Below are positions 2,983 to 24,266 of a DNA stretch of 64,000 nucleotides, one piece after another (position 1 is the stretch's first letter; each line of letters opens with the position of its first letter). The DNA is taken from assembly GCA_964348395.1 (NCBI GenBank), contig CAYGCK010000002.1:12729-76728 (forward strand). Direction: 5' to 3'. The translations under genes were made by a program, and so were the position numbers. The notes beneath the pieces were generated by a model that searched no databases, had not been told where the DNA came from, and was given only the letters and a program-made list of their open reading frames with translations. Source of the DNA: an uncultured Candidatus Saccharibacteria bacterium (lineage in GTDB: Bacteria > Patescibacteriota > WWE3 > 9FT-COMBO-53-11).

Positions 2983-4143
2983 ATGCTTCGGCAAGTGCTC
3001 CAACGGGTTTTGCGTAAAATAATAAATCCAGATACCGTAACACTTTTTCCCTCAGGCGATTTCAAAGGACGTGTTTTATTTAGTTATCTTGCCGAGCCTC
3101 TGCTTTGGAAAGATAGCGACCCTCGATTTGGGGGACACACAAATAAATGGAAGAGCTGGAAAATTGCCAAGATATTCCAAGGATTGGGATACGCGGTAGA
3201 CGCAATCGAATGGACCGACCACAAGTTTGAGCCGGAGAAGAGCTATGACGTTATATTTGATATTCATGCAAACCTGCAACGGTTGACTTCTTTTAATGCA
3301 AGAGCCAGAAAGATTTTGTATTTAACGGGAAGCTATGTCGATTACCAGAATTCAGCCGAACTCGAGAGGTTAAAGGAATTAAAAAAAAGGAAAGGTGTTC
3401 GTCTTGTTCCCCGTAGATTCATTAGGGACGCAGGCGACTATAAAAAATCCTTGGCGCTGGCCGATTACTGCCTCTTGGCCGGGAACGAAAACACTCACAA
3501 AACTTTCCCCAAGCGTTACCGGGGTAAAATCCATCCGATATCCAATCCCGGTTCCCACCTAGGCTGGAGGAAGTCCCGTGGTGCTTTTGTCCCGGTGCAG
3601 AGAGAATTTTTGTGGTTCTCGGGCGGCGGTGCCGTACATAAAGGTTTAGACCTTGTTTTGGAGGTGTTTTCTGCAAAGCCTTACCTGGTACTCAATGTAG
3701 TAGGGCCGGTGGATCATGAACAGGACTTCTTCGATGCCTACAGAGAAGAACTGACCCGAACGACTAACATCCGCTATCACGGTTTTTTGGATCCGTCTAG
3801 TGAGGAGTTCAGGGAAATAGTTTCTCGTGTTTTTTGCTTTGTTGCCCCCTCGTGTAGTGAAGGGGCCTCTAGCGCGGTACTGACTTGCTTGGAAATTGGT
3901 ATTTTTCCGATTCTAAGTCGCGATACGGGGGTATCTCTGCCCAGGGGTTCCGGCTTTTTTCTGCGCGATCTTTCAATTGGTGAGATTGGAAGTTTGGTAG
4001 ATAAGGCGTACCAAATACCTAAAGATGAATTGACCAAGAGAATCGATGTAGTTCAGAACTTTGTTTTGAAACAGCACTCAAAGGAAAAGTTCTCCGAAGA
4101 TATCAAGCAACATATCATACAAGCGTTAAAGATGAACGACTAG
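2983..4143 (+). CDS. GT-B fold glycosyltransferase (GT1/GT4-like)
   Basis: 386 aa. C-terminal half FLWFSGGGAVHKGLDLVLEVF...YHGFLD resembles the GT4 nucleotide-sugar-binding domain. Confidence 0.55.
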   Translation: MLRQVLQRVLRKIINPDTVTLFPSGDFKGRVLFSYLAEPLLWKDSDPRFGGHTNKWKSWKIAKIFQGLGYAVDAIEWTDHKFEPEKSYDVIFDIHANLQRLTSFNARARKILYLTGSYVDYQNSAELERLKELKKRKGVRLVPRRFIRDAGDYKKSLALADYCLLAGNENTHKTFPKRYRGKIHPISNPGSHLGWRKSRGAFVPVQREFLWFSGGGAVHKGLDLVLEVFSAKPYLVLNVVGPVDHEQDFFDAYREELTRTTNIRYHGFLDPSSEEFREIVSRVFCFVAPSCSEGASSAVLTCLEIGIFPILSRDTGVSLPRGSGFFLRDLSIGEIGSLVDKAYQIPKDELTKRIDVVQNFVLKQHSKEKFSEDIKQHIIQALKMND

Positions 4144-7498: not shown

Positions 7499-8682
7499 AA
7501 ATTTTACATACGGTTGAATTTTACGATCCTTCTGTTGGCGGAATGCAGGAGGTGGTCAAACAGCTTTCGGAGCGATTGGTAGAGCTGGGACACGACGTAA
7601 CAGTAGCTACCACAAAACTTCCGAACCGCAGATCCTCGGAGATTAACGGGGTCAAGATTGTCGAATTCGATATTTCTGGCAATTTGGTAAGGGGTCTTTC
7701 CGGCGAGATTGAAAAATATAAAAAGTTCTTGGTCGAGTCAAACTTTGGCGTAGTTGTAAACTTTGCCGCCCAGCAGTGGGCGACCGATATCGCTTTGGAT
7801 ATTCTTGGCGAGATTAAAGCAAAGAAGGTCTTCGTCCCCACGGGGTTTTCCGGCTTTTACCTTCCCGAATACCAAAGCTACTTTAGGAAGATGAAGGATC
7901 GGATTAAAAAGTACGATATGGACGTTTTCCTATCCAACGACTATCGCGATATCAATTTTGCCAGAGACGTTGGGGTGGACAGGAAGAAAATTACCATCAT
8001 TCCCAACGGAGCGAACGAAAAAGAGTTTTTGAGCAAGAGTAAGAGTAAGATTGACGTCCGGGAGCGGTTGGATACTCCAGAGGAGCACTTTCTCATCCTC
8101 CACGTCGGCTCCCACACCGGGGTAAAGGGTCACAAGGAGGCGATTGAAATCTTTTCCCGTGCCAAAATCAAAAACGCCACTTTTTTAATGGTCGGCAATA
8201 TTTTTGGTGGGGGCTGCAGCGTTTACTGTCCTGCCAAAGCCCTCCTTTTTAAATTTTCGCCCAGGCGCTTGCGTGACGGTAAACGTCTTGTGGTTACCCA
8301 GCTCAAGCGGGAGGAGACGGTCGCCGCTTACCAAGCCGCTGATCTTTTTCTGTTCCCTTCCAATATTGAGTGTTCGCCGATAGTTCTTTTTGAGGCGATG
8401 GCTTCCAAGACCCCTTTCCTAACCGCCGACGTGGGCAACTCGGCCGAGATTGTTGAATGGTCGGGCGGGGCCGGAATAGTTCTGCCAACCGACAAGAATA
8501 AAGAAGGTTTTGCCAGGGTGCGGATTCCCGAGTCGATAAAAATTCTAGAGGATATTTACCGTGACGAGAAGCGGTGGGAAAAGATGGCTAAGGATGGATT
8601 TTCCGCTTGGAAGAAGCGTTTTACGTGGGAAAAGATTGCGAAGGAGTATGAGAAGCTCTATGAGAGCTTGGCTAATAGTTAA
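7495..8682 (+). CDS. glycosyltransferase family 4
   Basis: MKILHTVEFYDPSVGGMQEVV N-terminus; C-terminal FPSNIECSPIVLFEAMASKTPFLTADVG is GT4-typical. Confidence 0.8.
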   Translation: MKILHTVEFYDPSVGGMQEVVKQLSERLVELGHDVTVATTKLPNRRSSEINGVKIVEFDISGNLVRGLSGEIEKYKKFLVESNFGVVVNFAAQQWATDIALDILGEIKAKKVFVPTGFSGFYLPEYQSYFRKMKDRIKKYDMDVFLSNDYRDINFARDVGVDRKKITIIPNGANEKEFLSKSKSKIDVRERLDTPEEHFLILHVGSHTGVKGHKEAIEIFSRAKIKNATFLMVGNIFGGGCSVYCPAKALLFKFSPRRLRDGKRLVVTQLKREETVAAYQAADLFLFPSNIECSPIVLFEAMASKTPFLTADVGNSAEIVEWSGGAGIVLPTDKNKEGFARVRIPESIKILEDIYRDEKRWEKMAKDGFSAWKKRFTWEKIAKEYEKLYESLANS

Positions 8683-18472: not shown

Positions 18473-20515
18473 ATGGTTGAATTTTTGCGTCCGGAACACA
18501 CAAGTGATCAGAGAACAGAAGGTACAGAACAGCCCGCGGTGGGTGGAGAGGTTAAGAAGCAGAGTAGAATCCGAAGAATCCTCCGGTTCCCACTAAAATC
18601 CAAAATTACCGATTTCATAGGTAGAAGTCGCCGGCGTAAGGTTTTGTTTCTGTCCCTTTTGGCTATGCCTTTTGTACTTCTTTTGCTTGTAGTCGTTATA
18701 CCGGCCGCTACTGTCTACTCCCAAGTCAGATCTTTACCGGCGCAGGTGGGGGTTATCAGGGGTTCGGTAGAGGAGAGGGATTTGGATAAAGCCGAGGCTG
18801 CTTTGGGGGAATTGGACTCCTCGCTGTCCCGGTTTTCCAGAACCTACAACTATCTTTCCTACCTTAAATTCATTCCGTTTTTGGGTAGATACTACTCTGA
18901 TGGGGTCCATCTCTTAAACGCCGCACGCCTGGCGGTTGATTCCGGGGAGATGGTGGTGGCATCTCTCAAGCCGTACCAGGAGATTTTGGGGTTGAAGGAA
19001 GGTTTTGGGGACCAGATTACCGTGGAGCAGCGTCTCACGAATCTGTTGGGAACACTGCCGAGCTTAAGTGGGAGTTTGGATGAGGTTTGGGGGAATCTCC
19101 TTCTTATCGAGGCGGAGCTTGAGGAGGTCGATCCCACCCGCTACCCGGAGGAGATCAGGGGAGTGAAGGTTAGATTTTGGATTGAGGAGGCGCGGAGCAT
19201 TTTGGCAGAGACGGGGCCGCTGCTTGAGGAGGGGAGGACGATTTTGGAGCTCGCGCCACAGCTTTTGGGCTCACCCACCCCTCGTACCTATCTGGTTCTT
19301 TTCCAAAACGACGCCGAGATTCGAGCAACCGGTGGGTTTATTACCGGGCTTTCTATGATAACTCTTGAAGGAGGCAAGGTTGTGGAGAACGAGTTTAAAA
19401 GCGGGGCCTACGTCGCCAGAACCACGCCTTACATCCCGCCCCCGGCGCCTTTGGGGAAGTACTTGCGAGTCGGTACTTGGCATTTCCAGGACGCAAACTA
19501 CTACCCAGATTTTCCCGCCTCGGCCCGCGAGGTTCTTAGGGTTTGGGAGCTTTCGCGCCTGCCCGCCCCCGCCGGGGTGGTATCCATTAACACCCAGGTG
19601 GCCTCTAACATTCTTGAGATCACGGGACCCATACACATCCCGGGCTATGACTTGGACTTATCAAAACTATCTTTCTTGCCCGAGTCCTGCCAGGCCGGCG
19701 GACGAGAGTTCACCACAGAAAACTTGGTTTGCCGCTTGGAGTATTATGTGGAGCGCAATCCCCAGGAGGGGACGGCTACGGAGGAGCGCAAACTCATCCT
19801 GGGTAAGCTCTCCGACGCGGTCATTCAGAAAATCACCTCGGCTACTTCGGAGATATGGCCGCGGCTTGTGGATATGGTTTTTGAGAGCTTGGAGCAGAAG
19901 AATATCATGATTTATGCTCTCGAGGCGCGCGAGCAGGAACTTATTAAGTCTTTGGGTTGGGCGGGGGAGATGCGGGATTTTGAGGGCGACTACCTTCACA
20001 TCTCCGACAGCAACTTTGGCGGCAAAAAAACCGATCTCTTCTTGGAAGAAGAGGTGGAGCAGATTCTAGAGCGCAGGGAGGACGGGGTTTGGCAAAAAAC
20101 GGTCAAAATCAGCTACTTCAACCCCCAACCCCTCGACAACTGGCTATCCTCGGTCTACAAAGATTTTGTTCGGCTTTACGTCCCGTCTGGCTCTCGATTG
20201 TTGTCGGTCGAGGGCGGGGCTCAAATCTGGACAGCACCCGATAAGTGGGCCACCGGTATAGAAAATCCCGCGGGTTGGCAGGAGTTTGGGAAGACCGTTT
20301 TTGGCGCTTACTTCACTCTTTGGCCCCAACAAGAGCACGCGATAACCTTCGTCTATGAGCTGCCCCAGGGCGCGGTTGGGGGTGAGACGTATCGGCTCTT
20401 GATGCAGAAGCAATCCGGTACAAATATAGGTCTTGTAGAAGTAAAAATCGGTGGTAATATAGAGGCGTTCGAGTTAAAAACCGATTTCGAAGTTTCGTCA
20501 ACCGTTGAACAATGA
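18473..20515 (+). CDS. hypothetical membrane-anchored extracytoplasmic protein (N-terminal basic tail + single TM; possibly DUF4012-like)
   Basis: 680 aa. Basic N-terminus, a TM helix (VLFLSLLAMPFVLLLLVVVI), then a large non-repetitive ectodomain. The family assignment is an unverified recollection. Confidence 0.5.
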   Translation: MVEFLRPEHTSDQRTEGTEQPAVGGEVKKQSRIRRILRFPLKSKITDFIGRSRRRKVLFLSLLAMPFVLLLLVVVIPAATVYSQVRSLPAQVGVIRGSVEERDLDKAEAALGELDSSLSRFSRTYNYLSYLKFIPFLGRYYSDGVHLLNAARLAVDSGEMVVASLKPYQEILGLKEGFGDQITVEQRLTNLLGTLPSLSGSLDEVWGNLLLIEAELEEVDPTRYPEEIRGVKVRFWIEEARSILAETGPLLEEGRTILELAPQLLGSPTPRTYLVLFQNDAEIRATGGFITGLSMITLEGGKVVENEFKSGAYVARTTPYIPPPAPLGKYLRVGTWHFQDANYYPDFPASAREVLRVWELSRLPAPAGVVSINTQVASNILEITGPIHIPGYDLDLSKLSFLPESCQAGGREFTTENLVCRLEYYVERNPQEGTATEERKLILGKLSDAVIQKITSATSEIWPRLVDMVFESLEQKNIMIYALEAREQELIKSLGWAGEMRDFEGDYLHISDSNFGGKKTDLFLEEEVEQILERREDGVWQKTVKISYFNPQPLDNWLSSVYKDFVRLYVPSGSRLLSVEGGAQIWTAPDKWATGIENPAGWQEFGKTVFGAYFTLWPQQEHAITFVYELPQGAVGGETYRLLMQKQSGTNIGLVEVKIGGNIEAFELKTDFEVSSTVEQ

Positions 20516-20532: not shown

Positions 20533-21282
20533 ATGCCTGCATTTAGGGAAGAAGGAATAGTAATAAGAAAGAAAGATTTCGGCGAAGCCGATAAGATTTT
20601 AACCATTTACACCAGAGACCACGGACGAATTACCGCTTTTGCACCCGGGGCCCGCAAGGTAACCTCCAGAAAAACCTCCGCCACCGAACTCTTCACCCAC
20701 GGAATATATTTTTTGTCCCAAGGTAGGAGTATGGACGTCGTCACCGAGTGGGAAGTCTTAAACTCGTTCTACCAGATAAGAGACGACTTGAACAAAGCCG
20801 CCTTGTCTTTTTATTTGGCCGAGGTTCTAAACTCCTTTTTGGTCGATGGACAGCCAAACTACCCGATGTACCGCCTTTTTCTGGAATCGCTTTCGCTTCT
20901 GTCGCGCGCGAAGCAAAACCATGAGCTTTGGGTGAGAGCGTTTGAGATCAAATCTCTGACCCAACTCGGCTTTGGCCCCGAACTTTACCAGTGCGCCTCC
21001 TGTGCTGCGCCTTTGACCTCCGATAAGTACTTTCAAGTGGAGCAGGGGGGAACGGTTTGTCGGGAGTGTGTGGAGGACGGGCTCCTTTTAAGTGACGAGC
21101 AGCTCGCGTTTCTTCGTGATATCGCGAGTTTAAACTGGAACGAACTCTCGCGGTTGAGGTACGAGGACCATAGTCTCGATGAGGCGGAGAAGATTTTGTC
21201 CTACTACCTCCGAGGGATTCTGGAGAAGGAGCTTTCAACCTCTGATTTTGTGAAACAAGCAAGGCAGGAACTCGCCGTTTAA
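20533..21282 (+). CDS. recO: DNA repair protein RecO
   Basis: MPAFREEGIVIRKKDFGEADKILTIYTRDHGRITAFAPGARK OB-fold N-terminus; C4 zinc motif CASCAAPL...CRECV. Confidence 0.85.
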   Translation: MPAFREEGIVIRKKDFGEADKILTIYTRDHGRITAFAPGARKVTSRKTSATELFTHGIYFLSQGRSMDVVTEWEVLNSFYQIRDDLNKAALSFYLAEVLNSFLVDGQPNYPMYRLFLESLSLLSRAKQNHELWVRAFEIKSLTQLGFGPELYQCASCAAPLTSDKYFQVEQGGTVCRECVEDGLLLSDEQLAFLRDIASLNWNELSRLRYEDHSLDEAEKILSYYLRGILEKELSTSDFVKQARQELAV

Positions 21283-21323
21283 CCGATTGCCTTTCTGTCG
21301 CTTGTGCTGTTAATCTATAACCT

Positions 21324-22616
21324 GTGATGGCTTCTGATACGTTCGAAAAGGTCGTGGCACTTTGTAAGCGCCGCGGTTTTGTCTATCCTGGATCCGACAT
21401 TTACGGCGGTTTAAAGGGATTTTGGGATTATGGTCCTTTGGGGGTTGAGCTCAAAAACAACATAAAGCGCGCCTGGTGGCAGGATACAGTTTACGCGCGC
21501 GATGATGTGATTGGGGTAGACGCGGCGATTATTATGAATCCCAAAGTGTGGAAGGCTTCTGGACATACCGAAGCCTTCACCGACCCTCTGGTTGAGTGCA
21601 AAAAGTGTCATAAAAGATTTAGAGCCGATCAGAAAGAGGAGATAAACGGGCATGAAAGGAAGGAACACGGGGGGAAAGGGGACTGGACCGAGCCTAAACG
21701 CTTTAATCTCTTGACCGAGGTTTATCTTGGAACGACCGAGCCCAAACAGAAAGCTTATCTTAGAGGTGAGGTCACCCAGGGTGTCTTTGTGAACTTTCAA
21801 AACATCGTTTCCTCTGCACGTGTAAAAATCCCTTTTGGGGTCGCTCAAATTGGGAAGGCTTTCAGAAACGAAATAACCCCCGGTAACTTTACCTACCGAA
21901 GTCGCGAGTTTGAGCAAATGGAGCTTGAATTTTTCATAAATCCCGATAAAAAGGAGGCCGAGCGCATTTTTAAGTACTGGAAGAAGGAAAGGTTTGATTG
22001 GTACGTTGGTTTGGGTATGGATAAGGCCAAGCTTCGGTTTAGAGAGCATGGCGATGACGAACGGGCGCACTACGCCCGAGCGGCTGAGGATATAGAGTAC
22101 AAAGCGCCGTTTGGTTGGAGTGAGTTTGAGGGGATTCACGATAGGGGAGATTGGGATCTCTCGCGTCATAATCTAACCTATAAAGATCCAGACGGCGATG
22201 AAGAATACATCCCCTGGGTTATCGAAACCTCAGGGGGAGTCGACAGGTCGGCTTTCTTCTTCCTCCTTGACGGTTACCACGAGGACAGGGACAGAGTAGT
22301 TCTCAAACTCCACCCCCGTCTAGCGCCCTACAAGGTAGCAGTTTTTCCGCTGGTGGCTAATAAGCCGGAACTGGTAAAGAAGGCCCGGGAGATTTACGAT
22401 TCGTTGAAAGGGTCGTTTCCGATAACTTGGGACGAGCGCGGCAATATCGGAAAGCGCTATTTCGCTCAAGATGAGACAGGAACACCTTGGTGTGTAACTA
22501 CCGATTATCAGACTTTGGAAGATAACACTGTGACAGTTAGAGATAGAGATACAACGAAACAGAAGCGCGTGAAGTTGGAGGAATTGGCCGATTACTTTCG
22601 AGATAATCTTTCCTAA
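21324..22616 (+). CDS. glyQS: glycine--tRNA ligase (dimeric alpha2 type)
   Basis: YPGSDIYGGLKGFWDYGPLGVELKNNIKRAWW class II aaRS motifs; C-terminal anticodon-binding domain. Confidence 0.9.
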   Translation: MMASDTFEKVVALCKRRGFVYPGSDIYGGLKGFWDYGPLGVELKNNIKRAWWQDTVYARDDVIGVDAAIIMNPKVWKASGHTEAFTDPLVECKKCHKRFRADQKEEINGHERKEHGGKGDWTEPKRFNLLTEVYLGTTEPKQKAYLRGEVTQGVFVNFQNIVSSARVKIPFGVAQIGKAFRNEITPGNFTYRSREFEQMELEFFINPDKKEAERIFKYWKKERFDWYVGLGMDKAKLRFREHGDDERAHYARAAEDIEYKAPFGWSEFEGIHDRGDWDLSRHNLTYKDPDGDEEYIPWVIETSGGVDRSAFFFLLDGYHEDRDRVVLKLHPRLAPYKVAVFPLVANKPELVKKAREIYDSLKGSFPITWDERGNIGKRYFAQDETGTPWCVTTDYQTLEDNTVTVRDRDTTKQKRVKLEELADYFRDNLS

Positions 22617-22627
22617 GCGAAACTAGC

Positions 22628-22810
22628 GATCGGTAAGATCACGTCCTATTCCCAAGACGAGATCGGGACCCCCTGGTGTGTGACGGTGGACTACCAAACC
22701 ATGGAGGAGGGGACCATAACCGTCCGCGACCGCGACACCACCAAGCAAGATAGACTAGAGATACAGGACTTACCCTCTTATTTTCTAGGGAAATTATCAC
22801 ACCTCTAGTG
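22628..22810 (+). pseudogene. displaced duplicate of the glyS 3' end (about 60 codons of the anticodon-binding domain), in frame directly after the glyS stop
   Basis: Translation [52 protein letters not shown] aligns to glyS residues about 375-425 ([51 protein letters not shown]). The nucleotides are diverged and GC-richer than the in-place 3' end. Confidence 0.7.
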
Positions 22811-22860
22811 CCACGACTCCCCCGCTAGGGGAGAGTGTTTGGCGACCTGTGTTTGCACTC

Positions 22861-22926
22861 TTGACTTAGAGATCTATTTTTGTCTAAAGTGGTGATAAGT
22901 GGCAGCAAGTACCACAAAGTGGGTAC
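22861..22926 (+). promoter_or_regulatory. mraZ promoter region with MraZ-box-like direct repeats (AAGTGG x3-4 at 10-bp spacing)
   Basis: TTGACT -35-like hexamer at 22861-22866. aagtggtgat aagtggcagc aagtaccaca aagtgggtac at 22887-22926 gives phased GTGG(G) repeats like known MraZ operators. Confidence 0.5.
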
Positions 22927-22977
22927 GTTAGCCACGCGGTTCCTGCCCAGGGACCTGCCCTTTAATAACGAAAGATC

Positions 22978-23397
22978 ATGCTGATTGGTGAGTATCGGAT
23001 CCGTGTTGGAGCTAAGAATCGCCTATCGTTGCCTAAGAAACTTCGCGAAGACTTGGGCGAGGAGGCGGTGGTGATGCGTGGTTATGAGGGTGCGGTTCTT
23101 GTGGTGTCAAAGAAGAACTGGTCCTCACTGGTTGAGGAGGTTTTGAGCGGTCCGTTGACCGATTCCCAAGTTCGGGATACGGCTCGGTTCTTGATGGGAG
23201 GGGCACACGAAGTGGAGCTGGACTCGCAAGGGCGCTTTGTTCTCCCTCAACCTTTGGTTAGCTTTAGCGGTATAGCCCCCAAAGATGTGGTTGTCTTTGT
23301 GGGTTTGGGACGCTGGGTTGAGATTTGGTCGAGCGAGCGCTGGAGTGAGCGTTTAGCGAATTTGGGCGAGCGCGCTGCAGGAAACCTCAAATTATAA
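22978..23397 (+). CDS. mraZ: transcriptional regulator MraZ
   Basis: 139 aa. Two tandem MraZ/SpoVT-AbrB-like halves (NRLSLPKKLRE / QGRFVLPQPL). First gene of the dcw cluster. Confidence 0.8.
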   Translation: MLIGEYRIRVGAKNRLSLPKKLREDLGEEAVVMRGYEGAVLVVSKKNWSSLVEEVLSGPLTDSQVRDTARFLMGGAHEVELDSQGRFVLPQPLVSFSGIAPKDVVVFVGLGRWVEIWSSERWSERLANLGERAAGNLKL

Positions 23398-23399
23398 GT

Positions 23400-24266
23400 A
23401 TGGCAATTCACAAACCGGTACTTCCTACCGAGGTACTTAAGTTATTACAAGTTAAGGAAGGCGGTCGCTACATTGACGCGACCTTGGGGGAAGGCGGACA
23501 CGCCTTGGAGGTTGCGAATCGCGGGGGTCTGGTTCTGGGAATAGAGAAAGACCCGGAGATTCTTGAGGAAGCCAGGCAGAGGCTGGAGGGCAAGGTAAAG
23601 GTTGTTCGCGGAAACTTTGCCGATATCGATCAAATCGCCAAGACGCGCAAATTTGACGGAGCGGACGGGATACTTTTCGACTTAGGTGTGTCCTCATGGC
23701 AACTGGAGCGTTCTGGCCGAGGGTTCTCTTTCCAAAAGGACGAACCCTTAGACATGAGGGCGGACCCAAGTCTGAAAGTTACTGCAGCTGATCTTTTGAA
23801 CGGATTAACAAAACATGAACTGGAAAAACTTCTTCAAAATCTTGGTGAGGAGGAGCGAGCTAGGGAGCTTGCTCGAGCTATTGTTCGCGCCCGTACCTTA
23901 AAACCTTTTGAGACCACCGAAGACCTGGTTCTGGTGGTCGAGGAAGTCAAGGGCGGGAAAGGTAAAAAAAGAATACATCCGGCGACAAAGGTCTTTCAAG
24001 CGCTCCGGATCGCTGTGAACGATGAAATAAACGCACTGCGGTCCGCACTGCCCCGAGCGTTTGGGGTCCTCAAGACCGGCGGAAGGCTCGCAGTCGTAGC
24101 CTTCCATTCGCTTGAGGATAGGGAAGTCAAAGGATTTTTTAGTGAAGCTCAAGCGCGGGAGCTGGGTCGGGTCGTGACAAAAAAGCCCGTGAGGCCCACC
24201 CCCCAGGAGTTAAAAGAGAATCCCCGTTCGCGCTCGGCAAAGTTAAGGGTTTTAGAAAGAATTTGA
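23400..24266 (+). CDS. rsmH: 16S rRNA (cytosine1402-N4)-methyltransferase RsmH (MraW)
   Basis: HKPVLPTEVL...YIDATLGEGGHA, FDLGVSSWQLE and RIAVNDE motifs. Confidence 0.9.
   Translation: MAIHKPVLPTEVLKLLQVKEGGRYIDATLGEGGHALEVANRGGLVLGIEKDPEILEEARQRLEGKVKVVRGNFADIDQIAKTRKFDGADGILFDLGVSSWQLERSGRGFSFQKDEPLDMRADPSLKVTAADLLNGLTKHELEKLLQNLGEEERARELARAIVRARTLKPFETTEDLVLVVEEVKGGKGKKRIHPATKVFQALRIAVNDEINALRSALPRAFGVLKTGGRLAVVAFHSLEDREVKGFFSEAQARELGRVVTKKPVRPTPQELKENPRSRSAKLRVLERI

Follow-up and report, generated by a model that had tools for sequence, protein, structure and literature searches.

How does the single-copy gene of an aminoacyl-tRNA synthetase come to be followed by a second, divergent version of its own 3' end, and which of the two ends is the original one? 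This question is raised by glyS, which encodes glycine--tRNA ligase (GlyRS), in a contig (CAYGCK010000002.1) of the metagenome-assembled genome GCA_964348395.1, labelled as an uncultured Candidatus Saccharibacteria bacterium. A stretch of 64,000 nucleotides of this contig (positions 12,729 to 76,728; hereafter the window) was analysed. Our preferred reading, to which we assign a probability of roughly 60%, is that the tandem arose by the one-step insertion of foreign glyS 3' DNA through homology-facilitated or microhomology-mediated illegitimate recombination. The features concerned are listed below in the coordinates of the window.

21327-22616, plus strand: glyS, class II (alpha2-type) glycine--tRNA ligase of 429 amino acids plus TAA, read as a functional chimeric gene; its product is identical to P0001 ('glycine--tRNA ligase').

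22446-22616, plus strand: copy 1, the in-place 3' end (IGKRYFAQDETGTPWCVTTDYQT...ADYFRDNLS*), second half of the anticodon-binding domain; probable xenologous import, left limit fuzzy.

22617-22652, plus strand: junction, consisting of the 12-nt spacer GCGAAACTAGCG, followed by ATCGGTAAG (IGK), ATCACGTCC, and TAT.

22653-22808, plus strand: copy 2, the displaced 3' end, range of firm homology; intact frame with its own TAG, untranslated pseudogene fragment, read as ancestral.

The similarity of the two copies is far beyond chance. Their local alignment has a BLOSUM62 score of 191, compared with a mean of 24 (sd 4.9, maximum 56) in 2000 shuffles, i.e. about 34 sd above the mean. Local tblastn gave E values of 5e-20 and 2e-19, and the match is the strongest internal similarity within the 64-kb window. 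In GlyRS, Pfam places tRNA-synt_2b at residues 140-307 and HGTP_anticodon at residues 336-426; the translation of copy 2 alone matches positions 48-91 of the 94 positions of the HGTP_anticodon profile (E = 4e-12), starting at the Q encoded at 22653. The reading frame of glyS, when continued past the TAA (22614-22616) for 63 codons, leads after the 12-nt spacer into the second copy (22629-22808), which ends with TAG at 22806-22808. An earlier, sequence-only reading had proposed such an in-frame second copy of the glyS 3' end behind the stop codon, to be given up if the similarity were no better than chance; the shuffles, tblastn, and Pfam all confirm it. Its place and frame for copy 2 were also right, whereas its extent (22628-22810) needs amendment, as the copy ends at 22808 and firm homology begins only at 22653. 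The local alignment has 35 identical amino acids in 57 (61%), and the part from QDE onward 32 in 49 (65%), in agreement with the earlier estimate of about 60%, whereas nucleotide identity, put at about 65%, is 60% across 49 gap-free codons. The longest identical run shared by the copies is 8 nt.

The differences between the copies are distributed to codon positions 1, 2, and 3 as 15/6/38 (59 in total over the 49 codons; 64% at third positions). Among the 32 codons that specify the same amino acid in both copies, 27 are synonymous variants and five are identical, and this shared-codon fraction (5/32) is below that of 99.6% of inter-species glyS pairs with a comparable gap in GC content at third codon positions (GC3). 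Each copy is 57-78% identical to GlyRS tails of other lineages, and the mutual distance of the copies is like that between the tails of different Patescibacteria families. The third-position excess and the synonymous variants show that each end diverged under purifying selection as the functional GlyRS end of a lineage of its own, and that the two were united later.

Copy 2 contains no stop codon or frameshift in at least 51 codons and has three rare conservative residues (M, E, and I), each found in 0.6-1.9% of 324 tails at its column. This state agrees with neutral drift of a few per cent after the copy was displaced, and an undisrupted copy with only three rare substitutions indicates that the event was recent. 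The NCBI annotation assigns 22629-22808 (7303-7482 of L001) to 'hypothetical protein GTO10_05375' (P0121, 59 aa), with a called start other than ATG, GTG, or TTG. This 59-aa 'hypothetical protein' behind glyS is a pseudogene fragment, and the annotation needs correction. In the working end, Thr is present at residues 384 and 392 (22476-22478 and 22500-22502), in the contexts QDE-T-GTP and CVT-T-D; Thr occurs at these two columns in none of the 324 other GlyRS tails, the first being Ile in 94% and the second Val or Ile in 94%.

Base composition contributes to the question of polarity mainly through third codon positions. The GC contents of copy 1, copy 2, the gene body, and the window are 42.1, 51.6, 49.3, and 49.5%, respectively, which bears out earlier hand counts of 43 and 53% for the two copies. 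At this resolution, however, 42% GC is a normal local fluctuation of the region, and bulk GC is weak evidence for which end is native, GC3 being the informative signal. The GC3 of the conserved 30-codon core is 0.27 in copy 1 (0.39 over the whole copy) and 0.87 in copy 2, compared with 0.54 in the gene body. In 17,625 host windows of 30 codons taken from the open reading frames (ORFs) of the window, values of 0.267 or less make up 0.6%, and the highest value is 0.867. The core-minus-body difference in 117 other glyS genes ranges from -0.20 to +0.29 (mean +0.025, sd 0.096); the values of copy 1 (-0.27) and copy 2 (+0.33) are both outside this range. Like copy 2, two of the three nearest mid-GC relatives have cores rich in GC3 (0.70 and 0.83), and the value of copy 1 is typical of lower-GC relatives. 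Codon-usage likelihood is of no help on the native end, both ends being compatible with the weak host bias (55th and 83rd percentiles). The GC and codon-usage profiles called for by the sequence-only reading thus yield a contrast in core GC3, with the copies as outliers in opposite directions, while bulk GC and codon likelihood are indecisive.

Polarity is decided, moderately, by context, namely the downstream block and the tail motifs, and not by bulk composition or tail phylogeny. The following features lie behind copy 2.

22817-22833, plus strand: hairpin CTCCCC-CGCTA-GGGGAG with a 6-bp GC-rich stem, 9 nt past the copy 2 stop; terminator-like with a weak T tract, of low weight.

22861-22925, plus strand: promoter-like site of mraZ, TTGACT-N18-TAAAGT, with four AAGTGG-type boxes about 10 nt apart, found by promoter scan directly after copy 2.

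22978-23397, plus strand: mraZ (Pfam MraZ), first gene of the dcw cluster (mraZ-rsmH-ftsL-PBP).

The gene order recO-glyS-mraZ-rsmH-ftsL-PBP is common to the window and its relatives, which have a short spacer and no extra copy. In L099, which with P0040 represents the relatives nearest in the GlyRS body (about 74-77% by two measures), the glyS stop is separated from the mraZ start by 107 nt, compared with 361 nt in the window. A block reading CTCTAAAGTGGTGAT.AGTGGC..CAAGT.CCA..AAGTGGG after the promoter-like TTGACT is near base-identical in the window (22861-22925), L099, and a second related locus, L103, and this conserved mraZ promoter/operator block adjoins copy 2, not copy 1. The tail motifs YSQDE and DLPS.F are also common to copy 2 and L099/L103, LPS[FYL]F being rare among tails (9/260). 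At 17 variable C-terminal residues, copy 2 agrees with P0040/L099 in 10 (joint-best of the 260 tails) and copy 1 in seven. The best full-length nucleotide match of copy 1 (74% over 181 nt) is to L126, a different organism from the same metagenome as the second assembly described below. The low GC3 of copy 1 and its two Thr residues seen in none of the 324 tails indicate that this end was probably the imported one.

Taken with the continuity of copy 2 and the mraZ block, these motifs uphold the earlier guess that the displaced end is ancestral, and we consider copy 2 quite likely to be the original end, with copy 1 having been imported. Alignment of both copies to the glyS genes of relatives, proposed as a check, was informative in part: context and the variable tail residues favour copy 2 as ancestral, while the tail phylogeny is indecisive. 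The pre-mraZ block with its four AAGTGG/AAGTAC boxes (about 3927-4000 in L099, and downstream of glyS in L103) is thus conserved in two relatives with GlyRS identities of only about 62-77%, and is probably the MraZ operator of the dcw cluster. The hairpin at 22817-22833 is not conserved in L099, and a consensus scan gave another, overlapping stem (22823-22844).

In the preferred reading, about 170-205 nt of foreign glyS 3' sequence would have entered the native gene at about codon 374-380 in a single recombination event with taken-up DNA. The insert would have comprised the latter half of the anticodon-binding domain along with a stop codon and a flank of 12-35 nt, its source being another Patescibacteria lineage with low GC3. 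Its left side would have joined through the conserved GNIGKRY/QDE-coding stretch, and its right side, 12-35 nt past the imported stop, would have joined illegitimately onto the native gene near the same position. Insertion rather than a swap would have resulted, as the donor sequence differed too much from that of the recipient to allow a second homologous crossover, and owing to the same dissimilarity (longest identical run, 8 nt) the tandem would escape recombinational collapse. GlyRS would now be made from the native body and an imported end of about 55 codons, translation ending at the TAA (22614-22616), and the original end (22629/22653-22808), displaced behind the stop, would be transcribed but untranslated and still intact because the event is young. 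The extremes at wobble positions may reflect a survivorship filter: with a similar donor, a second homologous crossover would replace the end cleanly, and a tandem of similar copies would quickly be lost through recombination, so that only very dissimilar pairs would be seen as tandems.

The junctions can be compared with these expectations. On the left, the transition from gene body to copy 1 is seamless (consensus ...WDERGNIGKRYFAQDE...), the reading frame is undisturbed, and the putative foreign segment is thus continuous with the recipient gene on one side. On the right, the 12 nt of the spacer GCGAAACTAGCG are without homology, and ATCACGTCC encodes I-T-S where relatives have a near-invariant R-Y, plus one extra codon, with clean homology from TAT TCC CAA. 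Alignments of relatives to copy 2 begin only at 22643-22653, firm homology starting about 20 nt to the right of IGK, and a 27-nt stretch of the junction had no blastn-short match in the fetched loci or elsewhere in the window. The interval 22617-22652 is non-homologous or scrambled, which is compatible with an illegitimate join. The main claim of the sequence-only reading, a 3'-end replacement from a divergent donor with the ancestral end orphaned, is supported by the codon-position pattern and the context.

Several points weigh against the preferred reading. Anchoring of the RecA type is very inefficient at only about 60-70% identity. The low-GC3 patch begins almost exactly at the duplication boundary, which is more readily understood from an insertion that was site-specific or illegitimate on both sides than from an upstream homologous crossover, and the reading does not account for the scrambled I-T-S codons of the junction. 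The core GC3 of copy 2 (0.87) exceeds the core-versus-body range of the 117 glyS genes, so that a native copy 2 needs luck or a lineage trend. Tail phylogeny does not separate the copies (Spearman rho of 0.21 and 0.18 versus body identity), both tails deviating by no more than about 1 sd from the identity to be expected at a GlyRS body identity of 74-80%, and a sliding-window 'bootscan' comparison showed no clear breakpoint. Finally, genome, metagenome, and protein searches recovered no close donor or pre-insertion allele, the best matches being 74-82% at the nucleotide level and 75-81% for fragment proteins; the protein searches with short queries returned short fragments only.

The main rival is an integrative-element scar like that of icd/e14, in which an attP carrying a surrogate glyS end would have integrated at the conserved IGK/RY codons and the interior would later have been almost wholly deleted, leaving copy 1, a few element nucleotides, and copy 2 on the attR side. 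The architecture, with a surrogate end in place and the native end displaced in direct orientation, is exactly that of icd/e14/icdC (PMC13626634, citing Hill et al. 1989), and the compositional switch falls on the duplication boundary, as a crossover at a core site would give. The two Thr residues of copy 1 might likewise have arisen in an element-borne surrogate under weaker constraint. As for the attachment site itself, ATCGGNAAG is present at the start of both copies, and ATCGGAAAG (copy 1, 22446-22454) matches ATCGGTAAG (22629-22637) in eight of nine positions, the second then running into non-consensus codons; the incomplete match of this putative core and the scrambled codons behind it count against the rival. 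A perfect 9-nt inverted repeat (TTTCCGATA ... TATCGGAAA, 22416-22424/22445-22453) lies at the left boundary, its arms enclosing a loop of 20 nt and the right one falling on the IGK codons of copy 1, at the start of the duplicated segment; about 0.1 such repeats are expected by chance in this 600-nt region, by our estimate. Another candidate, TTTCGCT/AGCGAAA as terminal inverted repeats around copy 1, was discarded as consistent with chance.

The distance between the ends is a further difficulty for an element scar, as only 12-35 nt separate them and the deletion must have reached within a few nucleotides of both. No integrase gene was found within 6 kb either side of the tandem, where the genes called encode glycosyltransferases, DUF4012, RecO, MraZ, RsmH, FtsL, PBP, a sigma factor, and MraY. 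Among relatives, a second glyS end was present in none of 80 loci of species-representative genomes, within the fetched flanks, and in none of 80 metagenome loci that had been picked because they resemble copy 2. Overall, no second end was seen in about 180 related glyS loci, covered with flanks limited to 5-6 kb and from incomplete collections. At 85 loci of the candidate phyla radiation (CPR) type, no integrase family was found among the most frequent 25 of 46 families (111 downstream ORFs), a listing that a single integrase might escape. Nor was a CPR-type glyS fragment found in IMG/VR or in phage records: the IMG/VR matches are mostly full-length glyS genes, and two of four GenBank 'phage' matches were checked, both being full-length glyS in unverified records. 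The search for integrase and att remnants at the junction suggested by the sequence-only reading therefore gave only the 8/9 IGK match at both copy starts, with no integrase and no clear att core. Its proposal of an element that 'integrated and later excised' is not literally possible, since an element that excises precisely leaves the site restored; the integrated element would instead have to have lost its interior by deletion, and no trace of an element was found. All told, we regard an integrative-element scar as the most serious competitor, albeit an improbable one.

One viral contig bears on this rival. In IMGVR_UViG_3300008755_000136 (L090), a glyS fragment at 7540-7950, covering only residues about 283-428, abuts genes for a phage portal protein (phrog_213) and a probable terminase. 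This arrangement, from a host outside the CPR, lends the element scar some plausibility; it may be either a junction of phage and host DNA or a surrogate end that a phage carries inside glyS. A more specific variant starts from the conserved core, in which similarity is imposed by the protein sequence, yet nearly all codons end in A or T in copy 1 and in G or C in copy 2. The two ends would thus be 'recoded' with respect to each other and could have been left by a small site-specific element, or be its surrogate end, targeting the conserved GNIGKRY-QDEIGTP-coding stretch of Patescibacteria glyS and possibly selected to be recombination-proof against the host copy. We consider this variant doubtful; if true, no attachment site in a protein gene and no surrogate-end element would have been described in the candidate phyla radiation before.

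Fragment surveys are prone to a trap at this site. Orphan GlyRS C-terminal ORFs on long contigs, collected as further cases, all proved to be contig ends, frameshifted or fragmented genes, or N-runs of scaffolds. 'HGTP_anticodon' ORFs of 64-66 aa occur on many ENA scaffolds (e.g. L182, about 3870-3900; L184, about 3925-3940), where N-runs split glyS near the same codons. A self-similarity survey for tandem gene-end scars in 1.47 Mb of related loci was too noisy to read.

Reversed polarity is a still less likely account. Here copy 1 would be native, and copy 2, with or without the mraZ leader, would have been imported from another lineage and joined just past the native stop. The core GC3 of copy 2, at the maximum of the 17,625 host windows and beyond the core-minus-body range of the 117 glyS genes, speaks for it, and the tails of relatives are, if anything, a little more similar to copy 1 than to copy 2. 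However, L099/L103 are the nearest relatives for the gene body, for copy 2, and for the downstream operator alike, from which copy 1 deviates (FA versus YS; 7/17 versus 10/17), its own core GC3 being an outlier too (lowest 0.6%). A donor so near the host should not differ by 40% in nucleotides from the host's own end, and the GC3 of mraZ is ordinary (0.57), so that the foreign patch would have to end in the 167-nt intergenic region.

An assembly chimera joining the glyS ends of two co-occurring species is conceivable for a metagenome-assembled genome, the more so as the Patescibacteria glyS of L126 co-occurs in the metagenome of the second assembly. However, the junction is base-identical in two separate assemblies, GCA_011772635.1 (WVZC01000267.1) and GCA_012975005.1 (JABAOC010004719.1; L002). 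L002 is 100% identical over 8,469 nt, including both copies, and two indels and three mismatches are present further upstream; these differences show that L002 is an independent assembly of the same population. With an identical junction over 8.5 kb in an assembly that differs upstream, flanks on both sides syntenic with relatives, and only 74% identity between L126 and copy 1, a chimera is very unlikely. The upstream differences lie in a DUF4012 gene two genes upstream of glyS (18473-20515, versus 1482-3230 in L002), the products being 680 and 582 aa, respectively. They represent either strain-level variation or an assembly difference, the two assemblies being identical from 20148 on.

In-situ tandem duplication of the native end, followed by divergence and decay of the downstream copy, would readily place the copies in tandem, on the same strand and in frame, but is effectively refuted and hardly credible, as neutral decay cannot yield 64% third-position differences with another synonymous codon at 27 of 32 conserved residues, a frame intact over 63 codons with no stop or frameshift at 40% nucleotide divergence, and GC3 values diverging in opposite directions. 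Equally hard to credit is a diversity-generating (template/variable repeat) or cassette system or a functional read-through extension, which the 3'-end repeat with a second copy downstream and in frame with glyS resembles in layout: the mismatches involve all four bases of copy 2 (C 23, G 15, A 14, T 7) instead of being confined to adenine, which refutes the diversity-generating form, identity is only 60%, no reverse transcriptase is encoded among the neighbouring genes, and read-through would append half a domain, with the frame kept by chance in one case of three.

An explanation of the GC-rich copy 2 as a structured RNA or riboswitch was likewise rejected, no Rfam match being obtained across 21000-24000 even at E values up to 1. 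In the whole window, the only structured RNAs detected are tRNAs, and the nearest tRNA genes are more than 20 kb from the tandem. With regard to the host, the GlyRS relatives that carry names belong to Woesebacteria, Microgenomates, and Gottesmanbacteria, and a Microgenomates contig (L087) shares the glyS-mraZ linkage; the label 'Candidatus Saccharibacteria' of the metagenome-assembled genome may be wrong.

CPR organisms are uncultured and have reduced genomes, and their mechanisms of gene exchange are mostly inferred. The glyS tandem provides sequence-level evidence that an essential translation gene of such a bacterium was rebuilt with DNA from a distant relative. With the 'before' and 'after' ends side by side, it amounts to a natural domain-swap, in which half of an anticodon-binding domain was exchanged at 65% identity, and it offers a dated marker for strain tracking.

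Among known systems, direct repeats of tRNA or tmRNA 3' fragments at genomic-island borders reportedly mark past integration (K.P. Williams), and degraded islands are said to be able to leave fragments only. The glyS tandem differs in its protein-coding target and highly divergent repeats, and no tRNA gene is involved. The closest architecture is that of icd, e14 (and phage 21), and icdC in Escherichia coli K-12, where, according to PMC13626634 (citing Hill, Gray & Brody 1989, PMC210168), incoming DNA replaces the last ~50 codons while the central gene keeps working, and the original 3' end is kept downstream in direct orientation as a C-terminal pseudogene, with differences that are largely synonymous. 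Two direct copies of a 3' end, the upstream one completing the gene, are also found in glyS. However, E. coli has a 15-kb prophage with an integrase between nearly identical ends, whereas the glyS ends are 60% identical in nucleotides with 12-35 nt between them and no element or integrase detected, and no relative or viral contig with an intact element at the site was found within the loci and collections surveyed.

Polymorphic toxin loci (orphan C-termini of Rhs and CdiA, effector displacement in type VI secretion systems, and orphan immunity genes) are alike in that a new 3' module is acquired via a conserved upstream region and the old one is pushed downstream as an orphan, for which homology-facilitated illegitimate recombination has also been invoked (PMC5361080). 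These loci are under diversifying selection and carry immunity genes, whereas glyS, present once and coding for an aminoacyl-tRNA synthetase, shows signs neither of an array nor of a diversifying function. Homology-facilitated illegitimate recombination itself, by transformation or conjugation, is documented in naturally competent bacteria and combines a homologous crossover at one end with a microhomology join at the other, giving insertion at the homologous locus (PMC3240628). It accounts for a one-step insertion without a mobile element, but was shown experimentally with high-identity anchors, whereas the glyS anchor is only about 60-75% identical. Set beside these systems, the glyS tandem is a real and fairly ordinary recombination scar of a known sort, a 3'-end replacement with the old end orphaned, and does not reveal a system of a new type; what sets it apart is that its ends abut and are maximally dissimilar at synonymous sites.

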